The notes below the pieces were generated by a model. That model searched no databases, was not told where the DNA came from, and saw nothing but the letters and a program-made list of their open reading frames with translations. Below are positions 2,823 through 28,858 of a stretch of DNA of 52,369 nucleotides, in pieces (position 1 is the stretch's first letter; each line of letters starts with the position of its first letter). This DNA comes from Minisyncoccota bacterium. Lineage in GTDB: Bacteria > Patescibacteriota > Minisyncoccia > UBA6257 > GWB1-50-10. The DNA lies in assembly GCA_041659005.1 (NCBI GenBank), contig JBAZZD010000004.1, positions 1-52,369 on the forward strand, written 5' to 3'. The translations under genes and the position numbers were made by a program.

Positions 2823-2835
2823 TTTTTTTGGATTC

Positions 2836-2934
2836 GTCCCGTTAGAAGCGGATATATCTTTGAACTAATATGGAATATGTTTATACGCTTTATTTTAAAA
2901 ATGTCGAAAAATTCTTGGCTAGCTTTCTAACGGG
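2836..2934 (+). repeat. Inverted-repeat element copy 1 (GTCCCGTTAGAAGC ... GCTTTCTAACGGG), between mreB and mreC
   Basis: Left arm at 2836-2849 and right arm at 2922-2934, directly abutting the mreC ATG at 2935. Same architecture as the copies at 11454, 14414, 25746 and 27440. Confidence 0.8.
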
Positions 2935-3627
2935 ATGAAAACAACCCGTGTATTAGTTCAAGTTTTGCTGCTTATTACCTTAGTTATCGTGCTCCTCACC
3001 GCTCAGAGTGAGGTGGGTAATTTTATTGTTGGTCTTCGTAATATTGCATACGGAATATTTGGTCCCTCATGTGATGTGCAGAATATGAAACGTGTCGAAG
3101 TTGAAAATAAATCACTGAGGAAACAGGTTGAGTTTCTTTCACTAAAAACCGGAATAAAAGATGAAAACGGAGAACTTTTAGCAAATGTATATTCATCATA
3201 TCCATTTAGCGATAAAGTTCATATTGTTGTTGATAAAGGAAGTATAGATGGAGTAAATACTGGCATGCCAGTTATGATAGACAAGAATATTGTTGTTGGA
3301 AAAATTATTTCTGTTCGCAAAACCCAGAGTGAGGTACAGACAATATTTGATCCAGAATGGAAAACGAGTGTGATCGTAGGGACATCTACAAAAGCAGTCT
3401 TAAAGGGAGGTAATATTCCAGAAATTCAGTTTATTCCGAAGGATGCAACTATCGCCCCATTTGATACAGTTTTAAATATCGCTCAGGAATTTCCGATGCG
3501 TGCATTACTTGGTTCAATAAAGTCGATCAGAGAAGATGAGAAGAAATTATGGCAAATTGCAACACTCGAAATACCAATTTCATTTGATGCAATTAATTTA
3601 GTGACCATTCTCACCAAGTTTCCATAA
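2935..3627 (+). CDS. mreC: Rod shape-determining protein MreC
   Basis: N-terminal TM helix, then a coiled-coil (VENKSLRKQVEFLS), then a beta-rich C-terminal part. Lies between mreB and mreD. Confidence 0.7.
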   Translation: MKTTRVLVQVLLLITLVIVLLTAQSEVGNFIVGLRNIAYGIFGPSCDVQNMKRVEVENKSLRKQVEFLSLKTGIKDENGELLANVYSSYPFSDKVHIVVDKGSIDGVNTGMPVMIDKNIVVGKIISVRKTQSEVQTIFDPEWKTSVIVGTSTKAVLKGGNIPEIQFIPKDATIAPFDTVLNIAQEFPMRALLGSIKSIREDEKKLWQIATLEIPISFDAINLVTILTKFP

Positions 3628-4109: not shown

Positions 4110-5971
4110 GGTCAAGAAAGAATATAGAATTTGAAGAAATCCTTTCTGATAAAAGTGTTGAGGGAAGTATACGGGAGGTTCCAATTCGCGAGCGGAAATT
4201 TTTTATTCTAATCGCTGTTGTTGCTATTATTGTTGGGGCGATGATAGTGGAATTAGTTTGGTTAAATATTGGGAAGCAAGAACTATATACCGAACGCGCG
4301 CTTGATAACGTATCTGATTCGAAGGTAAAACATTCTCCGCGCGGGATTATTTATGACAGATTTGCAAAAGCGATGACCGAAAATGCTCCTGCATTTAACG
4401 TATATCTCATTCCGCAGAAGCTTCCCGTTGATAGAGTTCAACGCCAACAAGCAATTAAAAGAATTGCAGACATATTGAGAATGTCTGAGTGGGAAATTGT
4501 AAAAAAAATTGAAGAAAAAGATTGGTCTATCTCTGGGAAAATGCTTTTAGCTGATGAAATTTCGCAAAATCAACTTGTCGAGCTTTCATCGTCAGAATAT
4601 TTGGGTATTTCAATTGAGGAAAGTTTTCAGCGAATCCATTCAGTTCCCTATGCCTTTTCTGAATTCATTGGATATACTGGGCTTGTAAACAAAGAGGACA
4701 TTTTAAATAATTCTGATTTAACGATCGACGACAGAATTGGACGTTCTGGACTTGAGATGTATTACGATCAGTTTTTGCGTGGTGTTAATGGAAAAGATGT
4801 AGTATATAAGACCGCAAAGGGGGAAATAAAAGATGAGCGTCTTGAGCGTGAACCGAAGCCAGGAAAAAACATAACGACATATATTGATTCAGATTTTCAA
4901 AAGTTTTTTTATGAAAGTCTAAAGAAACAACTTGAAGTTCTTGGAAGAGATGTTGGTGTTGGTATTGCGATTGATCCACGGAATGGAGAAGTACTTGCAC
5001 TTACGTCTGTTCCTGGGTTTGATTCGCAGAAAATTGGAAGTGCAATTATTGATTCACGGAGGCCGTTATTTAGTCGATCAGTTGCTGGAGTGTATAATCC
5101 TGGATCAACGATAAAGCCACTTGTTGCCACCGCGGCACTTACTGAGGGGACGATAACACCCGTTTCTAGTTTTTTTTCTTCTGGAATGCTTGAGATTCCT
5201 AATCCCTATACCCCGTCGCTTCCATCAAAATTTCCTGACAACAAGGCGCATGGGTGGGTGAATGCTCGATCCGCACTTGCTCGGTCAAGCAATATTTTTT
5301 TCTATATTGTTGGTGGGGGATATCAAAATCAAAAAGGGCTTGGGATTTATAAACTTAAAGAGTGGTGGACAGCATTTGGATTGGCAGAAAAAACAGGAAT
5401 CGATATTCCAGGAGAAAAAATTGGATTTCTTCCCGACCCAGAGTGGAAGGAGAAAGAAACCGGCGATCCATGGCGATTGGGAGACACTTATCATGTGTCT
5501 ATTGGGCAGGGAGATTTTTCAATAACCCCAATTGAGTTGTTGAATTATATTTGTGCAATTGCAAATGGAGGAATGCTTTATAAACCAAGAATTGTTGATC
5601 AGATAACCAATAGTGAGGGAAATGAATTATTAAAGACCCGTCCAAGTGTTATTCGTGACTTGAAAGCGAAGATATCTCCTGATGCGCTCCATGAAGTGCA
5701 GGAAGGAATGAAAGATGTAGTTGATATGCAATATGGAACTGCATACTTACTTCATGACATTCCAATGAACATTGCTGCGAAATCTGGAACAGCACAAATA
5801 CAAAATAATGCAAAAACAAATGCGTTTTTTGTCGGATATGCACCTGCAGAGGATCCAAAGATTGCGATCCTTATTCTTGTTGAAAATTCGCGTGAGGGGA
5901 GTTTAAATGCGACTCCAGTAGCCAGAGATGTTCTCCTGTGGTACTATAATAATCGTCTCAAGGGGTTGTGA
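4106..5971 (+). CDS. mrdA: Penicillin-binding protein 2 (elongation transpeptidase)
   Basis: Motifs SxxK (GSTIKP), SxN (RSSN) and K(S/T)G (KSGTA). N-terminal TM helix. The ATG at 4106 is preferred over the TTG at 4043 because of the ATGA coupling with mreD. Confidence 0.85.
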   Translation: MRSRKNIEFEEILSDKSVEGSIREVPIRERKFFILIAVVAIIVGAMIVELVWLNIGKQELYTERALDNVSDSKVKHSPRGIIYDRFAKAMTENAPAFNVYLIPQKLPVDRVQRQQAIKRIADILRMSEWEIVKKIEEKDWSISGKMLLADEISQNQLVELSSSEYLGISIEESFQRIHSVPYAFSEFIGYTGLVNKEDILNNSDLTIDDRIGRSGLEMYYDQFLRGVNGKDVVYKTAKGEIKDERLEREPKPGKNITTYIDSDFQKFFYESLKKQLEVLGRDVGVGIAIDPRNGEVLALTSVPGFDSQKIGSAIIDSRRPLFSRSVAGVYNPGSTIKPLVATAALTEGTITPVSSFFSSGMLEIPNPYTPSLPSKFPDNKAHGWVNARSALARSSNIFFYIVGGGYQNQKGLGIYKLKEWWTAFGLAEKTGIDIPGEKIGFLPDPEWKEKETGDPWRLGDTYHVSIGQGDFSITPIELLNYICAIANGGMLYKPRIVDQITNSEGNELLKTRPSVIRDLKAKISPDALHEVQEGMKDVVDMQYGTAYLLHDIPMNIAAKSGTAQIQNNAKTNAFFVGYAPAEDPKIAILILVENSREGSLNATPVARDVLLWYYNNRLKGL

Positions 5972-6469: not shown

Positions 6470-7912
6470 ATGATCGAAGATATCATTGAAGAGCGAAAGA
6501 AAAAACTTGCAGAATACTCAAAAATTGCGAGTGCATATCCTGCACGCATTACTCGAGACATGACAATCGCTAATGCGATTTCGAAATTTGATGAATTTTC
6601 CGAACAGAAAAAGAAAGTAACTCTTGTAGGAAGAGTTACTGCCCTCCGCGATCAGGGAAAAATTTTGTTTTGTGATATAAAAGACGAAAATGGAAAAATT
6701 CAAGCGGTTTTAAACGATGCAGAAATGGATAATTTTACGCTTATCCAAAATACACTTGATGTCGGAGATTTTATTGAGGTGTGTGGAACGTTATTTGCGA
6801 CAAAACGTGGAGAAAAAAGTATTTCGCCTATTTTAGTACGAATTATTGGGAAAAGTATCCGTCCGCTTCCGTCTGAATGGTATGGATTAGAAGACACTGA
6901 AATACGTTTGAGAAAGCGATATCTTGATATGCTCACTCATCCAGAGATACGCGAACTTTTTATAAAAAAAGATATTTTTTGGACTACTATTAGGAATTTT
7001 TTAAAAAATGAAGAATTTCGAGAAGTTGAAACCGCAGTATTGGAACCTATTCCTGGAGGAGCAGAAGCTGAGCCGTTTGTAACACATCATAATGCACTTG
7101 ATACCAATTTTTATCTTCGTATTTCACTGGAGCTTCCGCTGAAGAGGCTTCTTGTTGGCGGATTTGAGAAGGTATTTGAGATTGGGAGAATTTTTAGGAA
7201 TGAAGGAATTGATAGGGAACATCTTCAGGATTATACCCAAATGGAATGTTATTGGGCGTATGCAGATTATAACAATATGATGGATCTCACTCGAAAGATG
7301 TATCAAGAAGTGGTGAAGCAGATTACTGGTGGATATGTGACAACGTATCAGGATATGAAAATTGATTGGGGTGGAGAATGGCCACTGGTTGATTATTATG
7401 ATGAGTTTAAAAAAGAAACGGGATTGGATTTGAAAATTGCGACAGGAGAAGATCTAAAAAAGAAGGCAGAAGAATTAAAAATACGGCTTGAGCCAAATAT
7501 GGGGCGTGGTCGTCTTATTGATTTAGTGTATAAAAAAGCAGTTCGCCCATTATTATTACAGCCATGTTTTTTAATAAATCCTCCGGTTGATATTGAACCG
7601 CTCGCAAAGCGAAGTGAAAAAGACAAGGGAAGAGTTGAACGGTTTCAGATTATGGTGGGAGGAACAGAACTTGGGAAAGGATTTTCTGAACTTAATGACC
7701 CCATTGATCAGCGAGCACGATTTGAGGAGCAGATGAAACTTCGAGAAGCAGGAGACAATGAGGCGCAGAGAATTGATAATGATTTTCTTGAAGCACTTGA
7801 ATATGGAATGCCGCCTGCTGCGGGATTTGGTCTTTCAGAGCGATTATTTTCGGTAATTATGAATCGGCCGATTCGGGAAACGGTAATTTTCCCTCTTATG
7901 AGGCAAGAATAG
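6470..7912 (+). CDS. lysS: Lysyl-tRNA synthetase (class II)
   Basis: OB-fold N-domain and class II core (FRNEGIDREHLQDYTQMECY, GFGLSERL). The ATG at 6470 is preferred over the TTG at 6464. Confidence 0.92.
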   Translation: MIEDIIEERKKKLAEYSKIASAYPARITRDMTIANAISKFDEFSEQKKKVTLVGRVTALRDQGKILFCDIKDENGKIQAVLNDAEMDNFTLIQNTLDVGDFIEVCGTLFATKRGEKSISPILVRIIGKSIRPLPSEWYGLEDTEIRLRKRYLDMLTHPEIRELFIKKDIFWTTIRNFLKNEEFREVETAVLEPIPGGAEAEPFVTHHNALDTNFYLRISLELPLKRLLVGGFEKVFEIGRIFRNEGIDREHLQDYTQMECYWAYADYNNMMDLTRKMYQEVVKQITGGYVTTYQDMKIDWGGEWPLVDYYDEFKKETGLDLKIATGEDLKKKAEELKIRLEPNMGRGRLIDLVYKKAVRPLLLQPCFLINPPVDIEPLAKRSEKDKGRVERFQIMVGGTELGKGFSELNDPIDQRARFEEQMKLREAGDNEAQRIDNDFLEALEYGMPPAAGFGLSERLFSVIMNRPIRETVIFPLMRQE

Positions 7913-11388: not shown

Positions 11389-11453
11389 CTGAAGTGCAAA
11401 ATTCAAAAGTTTATATCAATTCCAAAAAATTAGTAGATTTCAAAACAACACCC

Positions 11454-11730
11454 GTCCCGTTAGAGACAATATGTACTACTATGTTTATATATTACAAAAC
11501 AAAAAGGACAATACATTCTATACTGGGTTAACCGGAGATTTACGGAAACGTTTAAAAGAACACAATGAAAATAAATCAACACGTACGAAAGGAAGGGGGC
11601 TATTTACACTTAGCTATTATGAAACTTGTCTTAATAAAACAGACGCAAGGTCGCGTGAAATCTATCTTAAATCAGGAATGGGTAAGCGATTCATCAAGGA
11701 TCGTCTTAAACGTTTCCTGTCTCTAACGGG
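11454..11730 (+). mobile_element. Long copy of the inverted-repeat element, carrying a GIY-YIG ORF
   Basis: Perfect 13-bp arms CCCGTTAGAGACA (11456-11468) and TGTCTCTAACGGG (11718-11730). The right arm abuts the ATG at 11731. Confidence 0.7.
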
Positions 11731-11734
11731 ATGA
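11471..11734 (+). CDS. GIY-YIG (URI-domain, COG2827-like) small nuclease
   Basis: 87 aa. YYVYILQNKKDNTFYTGLTGDLRKRLKEHN gives the GIY / YxG / R...E pattern. Stop overlaps the next ATG (ATGA). Confidence 0.85.
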   Translation: MYYYVYILQNKKDNTFYTGLTGDLRKRLKEHNENKSTRTKGRGLFTLSYYETCLNKTDARSREIYLKSGMGKRFIKDRLKRFLSLTG

Positions 11735-14400: not shown

Positions 14401-14413
14401 GTAGAATATATGG

Positions 14414-14517
14414 ATCCCGTTAGAAGACGGGATAGTAAAAAATAATTTATTGAATATATATGAAAAAGCAAACATTTAAATTGTCGAGCAAGCAAAATAA
14501 TCAAATTTTCTAACGGG
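14414..14517 (+). repeat. Inverted-repeat element copy 3, between hrcA and grpE
   Basis: Left arm ATCCCGTTAGAA (14414-14425) and right arm TTCTAACGGG (14508-14517), abutting the grpE ATG at 14518. Confidence 0.8.
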
Positions 14518-15018
14518 ATGGAAGAAGAAAAAAAAGAAGAAAATATTGCGGAGGAGTTAGATCTTGAAGGAATCCAAAAAGAGCGGAATGAATATCTTGA
14601 AGGATGGAAACGCGCGCGAGCAGATTTTATAAATTATAAAAATGAAGAGAGTGAGCGAGCAAGGCGATTGGGTGTAATAACAAAAGAAGTAATTATTGTA
14701 GACATTCTTCCGGTTCTTGATAGCTTTAGGCTTGGAATTATGTCATCAAATGATGAGCAGTCAAAAAAAGGAATGGAACTTATCCGAATGCAATTAGAAG
14801 AAGTATTGAAACGGAATGGATTGGAGAAAATAAGCATAAGTCCAGGAGAAATATTTAATCCATTGTATCACGAGGCAATTGGGGAAAAAGAATCTGAATA
14901 TCCCGAAGGAACGATTGTAGAAGAAATTGGAATTGGATATATACTTGATGGGCGAGTAGTGCGACCAACAAAGGTAAAAATATCAAAGGAGTCGAAAACA
15001 ATAAACAATAAACAATAA
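14518..15018 (+). CDS. grpE: Nucleotide exchange factor GrpE
   Basis: 166 aa. YLEGWKRARADFINYKNE coiled-coil motif and C-terminal beta domain. Position between hrcA and dnaK. Confidence 0.9.
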   Translation: MEEEKKEENIAEELDLEGIQKERNEYLEGWKRARADFINYKNEESERARRLGVITKEVIIVDILPVLDSFRLGIMSSNDEQSKKGMELIRMQLEEVLKRNGLEKISISPGEIFNPLYHEAIGEKESEYPEGTIVEEIGIGYILDGRVVRPTKVKISKESKTINNKQ

Positions 15019-19772: not shown

Positions 19773-19782
19773 ATATTCATAT

Positions 19783-19915
19783 CCGTAGATCGCAGGTCGA
19801 AGACCCCGAGGTAACACCGAGGGGCAAACGATAAATCCTGCTGAGGAAACCCAAAAATTTATAAGGAAACTTATAAACGATGTCTACGGCATAAAGGTCG
19901 TAGGCGTTTTTATTT
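19783..19915 (+). promoter_or_regulatory. Ribosomal protein L10 leader-like attenuator
   Basis: Long-range stem CCGTAGATCG (19783-19792) / CGATGTCTACGG (19878-19889). Internal hairpin CCCC-GA-GG-uaaca-CC-GA-GGGG with tandem G-A pairs (kink-turn-like). Alternative hairpin CTACG...CGTAG (19884-19903) plus a T-run just before the rplJ ATG. Confidence 0.55.
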
Positions 19916-19917
19916 TT

Positions 19918-25745: not shown

Positions 25746-25834
25746 ATTCGTGGTCTCAATAACAAACTAATACATTGATAGAAATAAATATCACATAAAA
25801 ATGTCGCACCTATCCATGAACTGCTTCTAACGGG
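25746..25834 (+). repeat. Inverted-repeat element copy 4 (left arm decayed), between ftsL and ftsI
   Basis: The right arm GCTTCTAACGGG abuts the ftsI ATG at 25835. ATGTCG mini-ORF at 25801-25830. The left end keeps only ATTCGT (25746-25751), shared with copy 1. Confidence 0.6.
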
Positions 25835-27439
25835 ATGAAAATCCGATTTTATATAATTACAGGATTTTTTACTTTGTTGTTTACCCTTCTCGGCGTGAAT
25901 CTGTATCAGCTTCAAATCGAGAAGGGCAAGGATTTTACGAGTAAAATTGAAGCACAAAATGCTTCACGAGAAGAACTTAATCTCCGAAGGGGGAGTATTT
26001 TATTTTCAAACCGTTCAGGAGATGAGATTCAAGTTGCTCTTAATAAAGATTTTCCTATTGTATATGCGGTACCAAAGGAAATTGAAAATGCAAAAGAAAC
26101 TGCGCGTACAATCGCTGCATTATTTTCGCTTGATGAGGCAAAACTTGAGAAAGATTTTTCTAATAAAAAAAGTCTATTTAAGCTTTTGAAGAATAAGGCA
26201 GACAATTCAACACTTGCTTCTGTTCGTTCACTTAATATAAAAGGGATTTACACTGACACAAAACAGTATCGATATTATCCATTCAATGAACTCGCAAGTT
26301 CGCTTATTGGATTTGTCGGGGTAAATGAAGATGCAAGTGAACCAATTGGGTTATATGGAATTGAGAAAATGTATGATGAAATACTTGCGCGAGGCGATCA
26401 AGTTTCATTTACCATTGATAGAGAAATACAAGCAAAGGCAGAACAAACACTTGAAGAGCTTTTGATTGCACATAATGGAACTGCTGCAACAATTGTGGTA
26501 CAGGAACCAGTTACTGGGAAAATACTTGCACTTGCAAACAAGCCAAGTTTCAATCCGAATGAGTATGAAGATTCGTCTACACAGAATTTTATGAATACTG
26601 CGGTGCAATATGTGTATGAGCCCGGTTCGGTGTTTAAGCCATTCACTATGTCTGCAGGAATTGATTCTGGCGCGATCACTCCGGATACAACCTATGTTGA
26701 TACGGGAAGCGTGACACTAAATGGGGCAACAATTCGAAATTGGGATTTAAAGGCACACGGGAAAGTTACAATGACGAATGCAATTGAGCTTTCATTAAAT
26801 ACCGCAACAGTGTTTGCTGAACAAAAAACTGGGCATAAAACATTTCATGAATATTTAAAAAAATATGGCTTTGGTGAGTTGAGTGAAATTGATCTTCCCG
26901 ACGAGGTGCGCGGAAGCATAAAAAACTTAGAACGAAAAGAAGTGCGTGATGTTGATTATGCGACCGCAGCATATGGACAAGGGGTTTCACTTACTCCAAT
27001 TCAACTCATTGCCGCATTTTCTGCGATTGCAAACGGTGGCGTGTTGATGAAGCCATATGTACGTACAAGCGAAACGCCGTATGTAGTTCGTCGTGTAATA
27101 AAAAAGGAAACAGCAGACAAAGTTCGCATGATGATGGAATCTGCCGTTGATAAAGCAAGAATTGCGGCGATCCCAAATTATCACGTAGCGGGTAAAACAG
27201 GTACTGCATTTATTCCCGATTTTAAGCGAGGTGGATATACAGAAGATCTGATACAGACTTTTGTTGGTTTTGCGCCCGCGACCAATCCGAAGTTCGTGAT
27301 TTTAATAAAACTTGATAAACCAAATAAAGAACTTGCGGGACTTACTGTTGTTCCTGCGTTCAAAACATTTGCACAATTTATCTTGAATTATTACAATATT
27401 CCTCCTGATCGAATTGGAGAACAAATTAAATCACAATGA
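25835..27439 (+). CDS. ftsI: Penicillin-binding protein (FtsI/PBP3-type transpeptidase)
   Basis: N-terminal TM helix. SxxK (GSVFKP), SxN (SLN) and KTG (KTGTA). dcw context. Confidence 0.85.
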   Translation: MKIRFYIITGFFTLLFTLLGVNLYQLQIEKGKDFTSKIEAQNASREELNLRRGSILFSNRSGDEIQVALNKDFPIVYAVPKEIENAKETARTIAALFSLDEAKLEKDFSNKKSLFKLLKNKADNSTLASVRSLNIKGIYTDTKQYRYYPFNELASSLIGFVGVNEDASEPIGLYGIEKMYDEILARGDQVSFTIDREIQAKAEQTLEELLIAHNGTAATIVVQEPVTGKILALANKPSFNPNEYEDSSTQNFMNTAVQYVYEPGSVFKPFTMSAGIDSGAITPDTTYVDTGSVTLNGATIRNWDLKAHGKVTMTNAIELSLNTATVFAEQKTGHKTFHEYLKKYGFGELSEIDLPDEVRGSIKNLERKEVRDVDYATAAYGQGVSLTPIQLIAAFSAIANGGVLMKPYVRTSETPYVVRRVIKKETADKVRMMMESAVDKARIAAIPNYHVAGKTGTAFIPDFKRGGYTEDLIQTFVGFAPATNPKFVILIKLDKPNKELAGLTVVPAFKTFAQFILNYYNIPPDRIGEQIKSQ

Positions 27440-27544
27440 ATCCCGTTAGAAAACGAACAAATATTAGTGGGTTTCCTATAGTGTTTTTATTTAATTTATT
27501 ACTATCTATGTCGAAAAAACAAAATTGTCATATCTTCTAACGGG
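27440..27544 (+). repeat. Inverted-repeat element copy 5, between ftsI and murF
   Basis: ATCCCGTTAGAA (27440-27451) and TTCTAACGGG (27535-27544), abutting the murF ATG at 27545. Confidence 0.8.
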
Positions 27545-28858
27545 ATGAAAAAATTTATGATTTCCATACTTCAGGGCATTTTGAAATATATTGCACGGGC
27601 AATAATTGCCAAATATAATCCAATGATTATTGGAATTACAGGGAGTGTTGGGAAGACATCCGCAAAAGAAGCGGTGCGCAATGTTATTGCGCGCGAGCGA
27701 ATAGTACGTGCGCCGTCAAAGAATTTTAATAACGAGCTTGGACTTCCACTTGCAATTATTGGTGATTTCGAATCAATTGGCGGGATTTTGTTCTGGATTT
27801 TTGTATTATGCAAAGGTGTTTATATCATCATTATTAGAAATAAATCCTATCCAGAGGTTTTGATACTTGAATATGGTGTTGATCGTCCTGGAGATATGAA
27901 AAAATTACTTGATATCGCTCGTCCTCATGTTGGAATTTTTTCTGCTATGGGAAAAGTACCGGTACACATTGAATATTTTACTGGTCCAGATCAGGTAGCA
28001 AAAGAAAAAACAAAGTTGATCGCACAACTTCCTGCTACTGGATTTGCGATTTTAAATGCAGACGATCCATTGGTGATGCGCGCAAAAAATGATACTCGTG
28101 CACAGATACTAACGTTTGGGATGAGCGAACATGCTGATGTGAGAATTAGTAATTTCTCAAATCACTTTGATGGTCACAATACTGAAATTTCAATGAAACT
28201 TACGTACGGTGGAAGCTTTGTTCCTGTTCGTATTAATGGGGCACTTGGGGAATCACAAGCATTTACCTCCGCAATTGCGTGTGCAGTTGGATTGGTATTT
28301 GGAATGAATCTTGTCTCAATCGCTGAATTGCTTTCAAAATATGAAGCGCCAGCAGGACGATTACGATGTATACAAGGAATTCGTGAATCAATGATTATTG
28401 ATGACACATACAACGCATCGCCAAAGGCGATGGAGAATGCGGTTGATACACTTGCGTCACTTCCAGCACGAAGACATATCGCAGTGCTCGGTGATATGTT
28501 AGAGCTTGGGAAATATACTCTCGAGGCACACGAAGAAATTGGGAAAATGATAAAAAAGAAAGGAATTGATATATTAATAACTCTTGGACTTCGAGGAAAA
28601 TTGATTGCGGAAGCAGCGCAAAATGCTGGAATGTCATCAAAATCAATATTTATTGCGGACACTATTGATGAGGTTGTTCATTTTCTCGAGACAAAAATTC
28701 AGAAAAGTGACTTGTTATTAGTAAAAGGATCACAAGGTGTTCGAATGGAGAGAATTGTAAAACGAATTATGGCAGAGCCTGAACATGCATACGATCGTAT
28801 CGCTCGCCAAAATTCAGAATGGATTGTAAAGAAGGGAATGTATGATGAGGGGGAGTAG
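27545..28858 (+). CDS. murF: UDP-MurNAc-tripeptide--D-Ala-D-Ala ligase MurF
   Basis: Mur ligase P-loop GITGSVGKTS. Central and C-terminal Mur ligase domains (DDTYNASP, LVKGSQGVRME). Confidence 0.9.
   Translation: MKKFMISILQGILKYIARAIIAKYNPMIIGITGSVGKTSAKEAVRNVIARERIVRAPSKNFNNELGLPLAIIGDFESIGGILFWIFVLCKGVYIIIIRNKSYPEVLILEYGVDRPGDMKKLLDIARPHVGIFSAMGKVPVHIEYFTGPDQVAKEKTKLIAQLPATGFAILNADDPLVMRAKNDTRAQILTFGMSEHADVRISNFSNHFDGHNTEISMKLTYGGSFVPVRINGALGESQAFTSAIACAVGLVFGMNLVSIAELLSKYEAPAGRLRCIQGIRESMIIDDTYNASPKAMENAVDTLASLPARRHIAVLGDMLELGKYTLEAHEEIGKMIKKKGIDILITLGLRGKLIAEAAQNAGMSSKSIFIADTIDEVVHFLETKIQKSDLLLVKGSQGVRMERIVKRIMAEPEHAYDRIARQNSEWIVKKGMYDEGE

Follow-up and report, generated by a model that had tools for sequence, protein, structure and literature searches.

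We analysed a window of 52,369 nt, the whole of the stretch taken from contig JBAZZD010000004.1 of a Minisyncoccota bacterium, in which a repeat with inverted ends recurs five times, each time directly before a start codon. We consider it likely that what recurs five times is a mobile DNA element with palindromic ends, of which copy 2 bears a gene, encoding an 87-aa GIY-YIG nuclease, and copies 1, 3, 4 and 5 are short and resemble MITEs (miniature transposable elements with inverted repeats). The family to which they belong is mobile, with palindromic ends, a 5-bp duplication, a fixed orientation and decay after insertion; members that end in T target the pentamer ATGRR, in fixed orientation and with a strong excess at genuine start codons, and short derivatives amplify on their own. 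That all this amounts to a new class of element, having a minimal SLX1-like nuclease as its sole enzyme, recognising folded ends, choosing a pentamer by complementarity, capturing start codons and being spread over several phyla, is a proposal to which we give an even chance; the conservative course is to treat it as a new superfamily among transposable elements.

Five copies in the window

The left arm TCCCGTTAGA occurs exactly four times and the right arm TCTAACGGGATG five times, all on the + strand, and none of 100 dinucleotide shuffles used as null reached these counts. The layout TCCCGTTAGA…TCTAACGGG-ATG is found five times in the window, each time adjoining a gene start, and the right arms end in the ATG of long open reading frames (ORFs), those of mreC, an ftsQ-like gene, grpE, ftsI and murF (Table 1). 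The original prediction, made from the letters alone, had placed the five copies correctly, with the right arm abutting the start ATG, the left arm of copy 4 decayed and an ORF in the long copy. It had missed that direct repeats of 5 bp, which include the start codon, flank copies 3 and 5 (ATGGA-T-CCCG…CGGG-ATGGA and ATGAA-T-CCCG…CGGG-ATGAA, respectively), that the right arm of copy 2 is coding, and that the family extends beyond this genome. No transposase gene is found near the copies among the ORFs of the window.

Table 1. Position of the five elements and associated features in the window
Feature	Coordinates	Strand	Left-arm start	Right-arm start	Start codon abutted	Remarks
Copy 1, short non-autonomous element	2837..2934	+	2837	2926	mreC, ATG 2935	Arms located; old insertion
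Copy 2, long putatively autonomous element	11455..11730	+	11455	11722	ftsQ-like, ATG 11731	276 nt
GIY-YIG nuclease gene, 87 aa, inside copy 2	11471..11734	+				Pfam PF01541, 6.6e-15
Left copy of duplicated target ATGGA, copy 3	14410..14414	+				Single ATGGA in empty sites L208, L209 and the more distant L152
Copy 3, short element	14415..14517	+	14415	14509	grpE, ATG 14518	Right ATGGA at 14518-14522
Copy 4, old short element	25751..25834	+		25826	ftsI, ATG 25835	Left arm decayed, right arm intact
Left copy of duplicated target ATGAA, copy 5	27436..27440	+				Includes ftsI stop TGA (27437-27439)
Copy 5, recent short element	27441..27544	+	27441	27536	murF, ATG 27545	Right ATGAA at 27545-27549
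Copy 5 mini-ORF, 34 codons, M-N-P-V-R-K…	27436..27540	+				From left ATG to right-arm TAA, 4 nt before murF ATG

The remaining junctions are less regular. Copy 1 has no direct repeat; its left end TTCGT (2833-2837, with the T at 2837 shared) is an inverted match to ATGAA, and some copies elsewhere have an inverted left flank of the same kind (TTCAT…ATGAA), which extends the palindrome. The left junction of copy 2 (11449-11464) reads ACCCGT-CCCGTTAGAG, with an apparent CCCGT duplication, where ATGAAT-CCCG would be expected. To the left of TCCCG, copies 3 and 5 have A where copies 1 and 2 have G, an alternation that had been offered as a sign of selection on RNA. There is another explanation for it: the A is the last base of the duplicated ATGRA, and the copies with G are without a left duplicated ATG. 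Likewise, the AGAGACA/TGTCTCT of the long copy is present as described and is explained as part of the long-form terminal repeat (14 bp, TCCCGTTAGAGACA/TGTCTCTAACGGGA), not as a compensatory change in an RNA. Minimum-free-energy RNA folds do pair the arms of copies 1, 3 and 5 (z = -4.6, -3.0 and -2.9, respectively), as had been anticipated. The window genes are also without Shine-Dalgarno (SD) enrichment, as had been stated (9.6% versus 15% in random 15-mers).

A motif (A)ATGTCG(A/C) lies about 20-25 nt before the right arm in all four short copies of the window (2904-2910; 14487-14493, variant TTGTCGA; 25802-25807, ATGTCG only; 27508-27514) and in their orthologues in L203, L206, L207 and L208, L numbers designating loci outside the window. 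As a shared piece of sequence it marks the short copies as a probable single short-element lineage.

Empty sites and decay in relatives

MurF, with identities of 76-88%, and the FtsQ-like protein, with 63-85%, led to syntenic relatives, which are annotated Paceibacterota or Parcubacteria and so point to that group as the likely origin of the window; L204 is on the same contig as L210, and L209 and L203 are one organism. Comparison of orthologous spacers, which had been proposed along with the original prediction, gave clean empty sites for copies 2, 3 and 5, with a single target at the ftsI/murF, hrcA/grpE and hypothetical gene/ftsQ junctions among L203-L210. Empty sites have one ATGAA or ATGGA, filled sites two, around the element. 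Copy 5 is absent from L203, L204, L205 and L206 (MurF 76-86% identical); the empty ftsI/murF site of L206 and L203, CACAATGAAGAAATTT, has a single ATGAA with the ftsI TGA overlapping the murF ATG, while the window has CACA-ATGAA-T[CCCG…CGGG]-ATGAA-AAAATTT. At hrcA/grpE a single ATGGA is found in L208 and L209 and a single ATGAA in L210, which is empty too; copy 3 is common to the window and L207, where its right arm is mutated to TCTAATGGG. None of the four syntenic relatives L207-L210 has the nuclease-bearing copy 2; in L209 the empty site is CAAACAAG/ATGAAAGAG. We considered an element that carries its own ATG and duplicates 2 bp only, as three GTGNN/ATGNN cases might suggest. The empty sites show the whole pentamer, single, before insertion, and a 5-bp duplication is therefore preferred over a 2-bp one.

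Old insertions decay. The orthologous copy 1 persists in L207 and L208, where it is mutating, and is reduced to a 32-nt remnant in L209; the copy 4 orthologue is decaying in L206 (TTTAACGGG) and L203 (TTTAAGAA), and L204 is empty at this place with a 10-nt spacer. Mutated arms among the orthologues of copies 1 and 4 (L207/L208 and L206/L203) include TCTAACAGG and CTCGTCAGA besides those just given. That copies come, go and then decay argues against a host-maintained function for the arms. In L207 (1705-1806, corresponding to window 2833-2937) copy 1 shows a compensatory double change in the invariant core, from CCCGTTAGA to CCTGTTAGA and from TCTAACGGG to TCTAACAGG; its L208 orthologue has a change in the right arm only. 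At the same mreC start codon L210 contains a separate copy, a partly deleted long form of 186 nt with an ATGAA repeat.

The family in other genomes

A family scan with the exact pattern TCCCGTTAGA-N65-95-TCTAACGGGATG, using one genome per species, gave at least 120 loci. Genomes with the arm pair number more than 120 and belong to Patescibacteria, Omnitrophota and Planctomycetota; hosts among the matches listed are many Patescibacteria lineages, Omnitrophota, Planctomycetota and a few metagenome-assembled genomes labelled Gammaproteobacteria or Desulfobacterales. A copy is also present in CP011215.1, a complete Patescibacteria genome, and the groundwater series of Hainich and Rifle contain relatives. 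In a set of 130 copies chosen by arms and right ATG only, with the left flank left free, ATG stands at -5 to -3 of the left flank in 94 and a perfect ATGNN repeat in 83. The duplicated NN is AA, AG, GA, TA, CA, CG, CC or GG, and both sides always match. Long arm-flanked elements have the same 5-bp duplication in 31 of 75 cases, and a few 4- or 6-bp variants occur family-wide. The co-orientation and locking to start codons first seen in the window hold in these 130 copies elsewhere, as 116 of their right ATGs begin an ORF of 60 aa or more, compared with 28% for random ATGs.

Several loci document movement within genomes. L070 (minus strand, 1280-1500) contains two different short elements in tandem, ATGAA[element]ATGAA[element]ATGAA, which shows the duplicated pentamer to be a target in its own right; L074 and L120 have a similar appearance. 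Near-identical interiors are found at different genes of one genome (L038 and L046), and shared interiors (L038/L046, L068 and others) keep the same orientation relative to the gene, short-copy interiors being otherwise extremely diverse. Matches of interiors in both orientations were rejected, since the 'opposite' ones all involve elements flanked by CAT…ATG that matched on both strands, either an element against its own reverse complement or a reverse-strand duplicate against another copy. We infer from the 186-nt intermediates in L209 and L210 that the short copies probably arose as internal deletions of the nuclease element.

Phage as vector was rejected, as a single viral contig carries the element. 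This only match in the viral collection (L211:3735-3828, an IMG/VR contig of 8.5 kb) is a copy flanked by ATGAA, inside which further small hairpins of a related arm (CCCTGTTAGAGG…CCTCTAACAGGG) are nested. 'Solo hairpins', with arms only 8-30 nt apart, were seen at L206:1124-1156, L025:2141-2170, L079:4278-4304, L044:7078-7124 and, in L168, at 5401-5430, 5789-5818, 7065-7091 and 7279-7306; they may be minimal mobile units, or else excision or deletion footprints.

Covariation of the ends

Terminal inverted repeats are present in all copies and consist of a 10-bp invariant core and 3-6 covarying bp. The stem can be described as an outer T/A pair, a 9-bp core and three inner positions, the terminal stem measuring 12-16 bp. 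Each of the three inner pairs shows 4-5 pair types, Watson-Crick pairing at these positions being about 94%, and about 20 different complementary triplets occur. Among 100 arm pairs double-sided changes number 139, versus 43.7±5.4 when shuffled (0 of 500 shuffles reach the observed number), and pairing falls from 96% to at most 48% once the partner is slid. In long copies this covariation alters the encoded residue (L-S-L, L-A-L, L-T-L). Compensatory change preserves the terminal stem, and the interior varies freely. The arms do covary, as the original prediction had supposed, and no RNA-specific signature accompanies this: mismatches at the inner pairs are equally rare for G·U (11) and A·C (14), so that nothing indicates that the sense RNA alone matters, and pairing is needed to a degree at which wobble brings no advantage.

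In the copies L005, L024, L035, L042, L044, L048 and L051, from SD-using hosts (Omnitrophota and Planctomycetota), the right inner stem reads …GGAG/GAGG-TCTAACGGG-ATG and the left arm carries the complementary CCTC. GGAG or GAGG is found 9-13 nt before the ATG in 7 of 13 copies from SD-using hosts, which lie outside the Candidate Phyla Radiation, versus 6 of 74 in other hosts, mostly Patescibacteria.

The nuclease

The gene of copy 2 matches PF01541 with 55.6 bits against a cut-off of 22.6, over profile positions 1-70 of 78; a match to NCBIfam TIGR01453 (group I intron endonucleases) is sub-threshold, at 29 versus 56 bits. The right arm forms the last codons of the gene, CTG TCT CTA ACG GGA TGA (L S L T G stop); this TGA and the host ATG overlap, as ATGA. 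At the other end of the gene, the M-x-P-V-R-[DE] start is ATGNN-TCCCGTTAGAGAY translated. Among 120 homologues the C-terminus …RFLSLTG is found in 103 and the N-terminus MxPVR[DE] in 32. Metagenomes were then scanned with the protein as seed, which gave at least 551 confirmed relatives, with 80 loci kept. Both arms, about 275 nt apart, surround 70 of these 80 nuclease genes, found by protein similarity. The arms are the coding ends of the nuclease gene (PVR… and …SLTG-stop) and at the same time the termini of the element. Between the arms the long element, about 275 nt, is nearly filled by the nuclease ORF (86-94 aa among element nucleases), with no room for a second gene and no other ORF.

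The predicted fold (pLDDT 90) was compared by Foldseek, in which 1ZG2 (UPF0213, 36% identity) is the best match, followed by SLX1 and HIGLE, with the I-TevI catalytic domain lower. The SLX1 match has a TM of 0.65-0.67 and a root-mean-square deviation (rmsd) of about 2 Å (6SEH: TM 0.67, rmsd 2.0 Å). Residues Y6, Y17, G19, R27, H31 and E63 are invariant among 30 homologues, and N77 nearly so; Y6, Y17, R27, H31, E63 and N77 may be the equivalents of the catalytic Tyr, Tyr, Arg, His, Glu and Asn of I-TevI.

A sister family of GIY-YIG nucleases of 82-83 aa has its own related arms, CCCCGTGAGATA…TATCTCACGGGG, with a longer outer inverted repeat. It lies just upstream of the rplJ start in L206:1300-1625, L207:18125-18445 and L210:17145-17460, and is absent from L208, L209, L203 and the window, which has an empty site just upstream of the rplJ ATG (19918). 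The rplJ leader itself (window 19780-19917), about 140 nt, is conserved in all relatives, with long-range pairing CCGTAGA…TCTACGG and a terminator-like end GGTCGTAGGCGTTTTT; it has no Rfam match at gathering score, and its variable middle is the site of the L206 solo hairpin, which lies inside this conserved leader.

Target choice and the excess at start codons

The protein-seeded sample is unbiased as to ATG and is the source of elements ending in C; we call T-type and C-type those with T and C, respectively, as outermost left base. The general layout is X1-X5, x1', CCCGTTAGA … TCTAACGGG, X1-X5, in which the outermost left base x1' is complementary to X1. T-type elements use ATGRR, mostly ATGAA: AA makes up 69% of the duplications versus 25% of ordinary starts, and purine is found at position 4 in 93% versus 68% and at position 5 in 97% versus 55%. 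Duplications of C-type elements begin with G (GTAAA, GTAAG, GTGAA, GTTTA, GCTGG), and long C-type copies lie in spacers or the 3' ends of host genes. No tRNA association was found for C-type copies. GTAAA and GTGAA raise the idea that stop codons are targeted; an upstream stop is present in some loci (L177) and not in others (L196), and we make no such claim.

C-ended nuclease copies from different metagenomes were seen to interrupt the 3' end of one ORF6N-domain (KilA-N-like) gene, at three distinct positions (L139:5290-5985, L159:1196-1549 and L164:330-872, with relatives L145, L147, L156, L171, L174, L176, L180 and L191); each insertion yields a new …P-R-stop ending from the left arm.

The start-site preference was measured by excising the elements with a perfect repeat and comparing the restored site with all other ATGAR sites of the same loci. 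Between 68 and 74 of 77 insertions are at a gene-opening ATG and 3 are intergenic, while the other 2,561 ATGAR sites are 330 start-like, 307 intergenic and 1,924 intragenic; a cruder classifier puts 92% versus 35% at starts (p≈3e-20). Something beyond the pentamer favours start sites, and the excess is strong. No extra motif was found upstream of the insertion sites, and a target defined by SD was rejected, as SD sequences before the left ATG are not enriched (12% versus 12%).

Translation at the putatively captured start

Among 38 intact T-type nuclease genes the left ATG is present in 28, and it is in frame and open in 18 of these 28, versus one third expected; nine of these nuclease genes are without an internal ATG, so that a start is possible only at the captured host codon. 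The nuclease stop is a TGA overlapping the host ATG in 35 of the 38. In short copies the P-V-R frame is open in 47 of 132, compared with 25 of 132 antisense (p=0.0035) and 15.7±3.6 with shuffled interiors, nulls chosen because the arms carry stops in other frames (TGA in ATGAA, TAG in CCCGTTAG); the enrichment of this mini-ORF over these nulls is 2-3-fold. The open frame ends at the right-arm TAA or TGA. Copies of a length at which left ATG and host gene would be fused in one frame are scarcer than those of other lengths (20 versus 40 and 41, p=0.015), and such in-frame copies are almost always closed by stops (open in 2 of 20 versus 37 of 81, p=0.004). These frame and length patterns are what selection would give if ribosomes start at the left ATG, and suggest capture of the start codon followed by termination-reinitiation.

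Discussion

In the mechanism that we propose, the nuclease would recognise the folded ends of the element, as hairpin or cruciform, and make the breaks that move it, with short copies using the enzyme in trans and the first target base being matched to the terminal base of the element. After insertion, the host start region and left ATG would drive the nuclease (M-x-P-V-R-D…) or, in short copies, a mini-ORF of about 35 codons. That frame would be closed within the right arm, by a TAA 4 nt ahead of the duplicated ATG or by a TGA that overlaps it, and termination-reinitiation would give the host protein, with the ribosome, as it translates, opening the hairpin in which the AUG would otherwise be hidden. 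This hairpin would be the terminal repeat of the element, and any effect on host translation a by-product that the element is shaped to minimise.

A number of observations weigh against this picture. About one third of T-type copies are without a perfect repeat, some being inverted (TTCAT), and the left junction of copy 2 is irregular; among C-type copies only 12 of 42 have direct repeats, and these copies usually lie off start codons, often truncating host genes. The statistics on start codons come from a search pattern in which ATG was obligatory; in the protein-seeded sample, small and unbiased, only some two thirds of T-type copies lie at an ATG. Of the mini-ORFs 60% are closed, which means that coupling cannot be required for host expression. 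When the interiors of short copies were compared with long copies by blastn, only chance-level matches of 13-18 nt were found. Nuclease sequences group by element type only moderately (82% nearest-neighbour agreement versus a null of 50%), with no residue diagnostic of T- versus C-type among them; this moderate clustering would fit if the DNA end, and not the protein, determined the first target base. Finally, no strand-transfer activity is known for a GIY-YIG hydrolase, so that the picture does not account for the joining of element to target.

The last point bears on a homing-like alternative, in which breaks made by the nuclease are repaired by copying another copy of the element through 5-bp microhomology, the 'duplication' being templated. 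We regard this as possible, if on the doubtful side. GIY-YIG proteins are the classic homing nucleases, donors are flanked on both sides by the pentamer of the target, and such repair would explain why a hydrolase alone could be enough and why junctions can be irregular, as in copy 2, or inverted. Against it, the two repeats of a copy match even for rare NN (CG, CC, GG, TA), as they would from fill-in of a staggered cut and less evidently if a donor that has another NN were copied.

A second alternative concerns targeting alone: the element would read nothing more than ATGRR, and the association with starts would come entirely from selection removing other insertions. The preference is indeed for a simple pentamer, and no gene start is commoner (ATGAA, 25% of starts), C-type elements use GTRAA away from starts, upstream motif and SD are wanting, and some T-type copies are at non-ATG pentamers (ACTAA, ATTGA, ATAAG). 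We nevertheless find it rather unlikely, since tolerated ATGAR sites at starts and between genes are available as 330 to 307 and are used as 68-74 to 3, and since an insertion in a 5' untranslated region or spacer should hurt the host less than one that splits a gene from its initiation region.

That the repeats are ordinary MITEs moved by a conventional transposase located elsewhere, with the GIY-YIG gene as passenger or independent homing gene, appears improbable. In its favour, transposition of DNA is not known for GIY-YIG enzymes, the majority of copies are short and without coding sequence, and short interiors are unlike the nuclease gene; but 70 of 80 nuclease genes have both arms, which are in-frame coding sequence in an element of about 275 nt without other ORF, the sister nuclease family has related arms of its own, and the neighbourhood of the window copies has no transposase gene. 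The fallback of the original prediction, simple MITEs with no positional constraint, was right as to the likeness and not as to the position, which is strongly constrained.

The original prediction itself, a host-kept cis-regulatory RNA hairpin clamping the start of particular cell-envelope and chaperone genes, has become highly improbable, for although the fold buries the A and U of the AUG, the stem covaries, all copies are co-oriented with their gene, in 171 of 178 copies an A or a G faces the U of AUG and copy 1 of L207 has exchanged C-G for T-A by compensatory change, the same junction is filled or empty among relatives 80-90% identical, old arms decay (L203, L206, L208), interiors are unconserved, the host genes are arbitrary, unrelated over more than 120 genomes, the arms are coding ends of a nuclease gene, G·U is in no excess over A·C, and the purine opposite the U belongs to the duplicated target.

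Comparison with known systems

The view of the repeats as a mobile element with a nuclease of its own invites comparison with several known systems. Bacterial MITEs (Correia/NEMIS of Neisseria, RUP, ERIC) are likewise non-coding, about 100 nt long and present in many copies with terminal inverted repeats and a short target duplication, are intergenic, form hairpins when co-transcribed and are related to a longer, coding element. They derive from insertion sequences (IS) with DDE or other established transposases and use generic targets such as TA, whereas the element described here has a GIY-YIG nuclease as sole protein, targets ATGRR at starts in fixed orientation and has its arms within the enzyme gene. 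An autonomous partner with a known transposase (DDE, HUH, serine or tyrosine recombinase) was not found, the only ORF of the long form being GIY-YIG.

Free-standing GIY-YIG homing genes (T4 Seg, I-TevI) are also small selfish nuclease genes between host genes, often with stop/start overlap; they have a DNA-binding domain, one cognate allele and homologous repair, and are without terminal repeats or duplications. The nuclease of the present element, in contrast, comprises the catalytic domain and a single helix, is in structure closer to SLX1 than to I-TevI, and sits at hundreds of unrelated genes. SLX1, HIGLE and UPF0213 (YhbQ-like) proteins share its fold and small size, and the action of SLX1 and HIGLE on branched or cruciform DNA would fit a palindromic substrate; theirs is a role in host repair or resolution and they are not known to be mobile, while the nuclease here is known from sequence and predicted fold.

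IS200/IS605 and REP/REPIN-RAYT systems share hairpin-forming ends, a 4-5-nt target, fixed orientation and abundant short derivatives, and the complementarity of the outermost base recalls their DNA-DNA base-pairing for target choice. They have HUH/Y1 transposases and no duplication, and REPINs are not tied to start codons; here no HUH/Y1 gene is present among the window ORFs, and a duplication is. Rickettsia palindromic elements resemble ours as short palindromic mobile elements tolerated because translation passes through them, but are inserted in frame within genes and become part of the protein, while here the element precedes the coding sequence and read-through is avoided. Integron attC sites were rejected, as the polarity is reversed (GTTAGAR … YTCTAAC versus RYYYAAC … GTTRRRY) and the copies are dispersed at housekeeping genes; among the window ORFs no integrase-sized one adjoins the copies, integrase homology itself not having been searched.

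The repeat is in neither Rfam nor the searchable literature, as had been suspected. The whole window is without an Rfam match at gathering score, and around copies 1 and 5 the matches at E≤1 are no better than chance; no description of the element was found in searchable full-text literature. The one relevant passage, in PMC12455944, only names GIY-YIG proteins among genes that Patescibacteria are predicted to have donated to other bacteria.

Implications

If our reading is true, a nuclease family not previously known to do so drives a bacterial transposon, and how a hydrolase of about 90 residues moves DNA becomes the question. A borrowed start codon, returned as a duplicate, would explain how insertions before the essential mreC, ftsI, murF and grpE are tolerated in tiny, packed genomes. 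For annotation, hundreds of calls of 'GIY-YIG nuclease family protein' in Patescibacteria and other uncultured phyla would be genes of mobile elements, starts beside the arms can be mis-called, and 'intergenic spacers' of about 100 nt in operons of overlapping genes would be insertions. The pattern of presence and absence would supply strain-level markers, and the exact 22-nt signature across phyla would trace horizontal transfer. A compact nuclease, perhaps specific for structure as well as pentamer, could also have practical interest.

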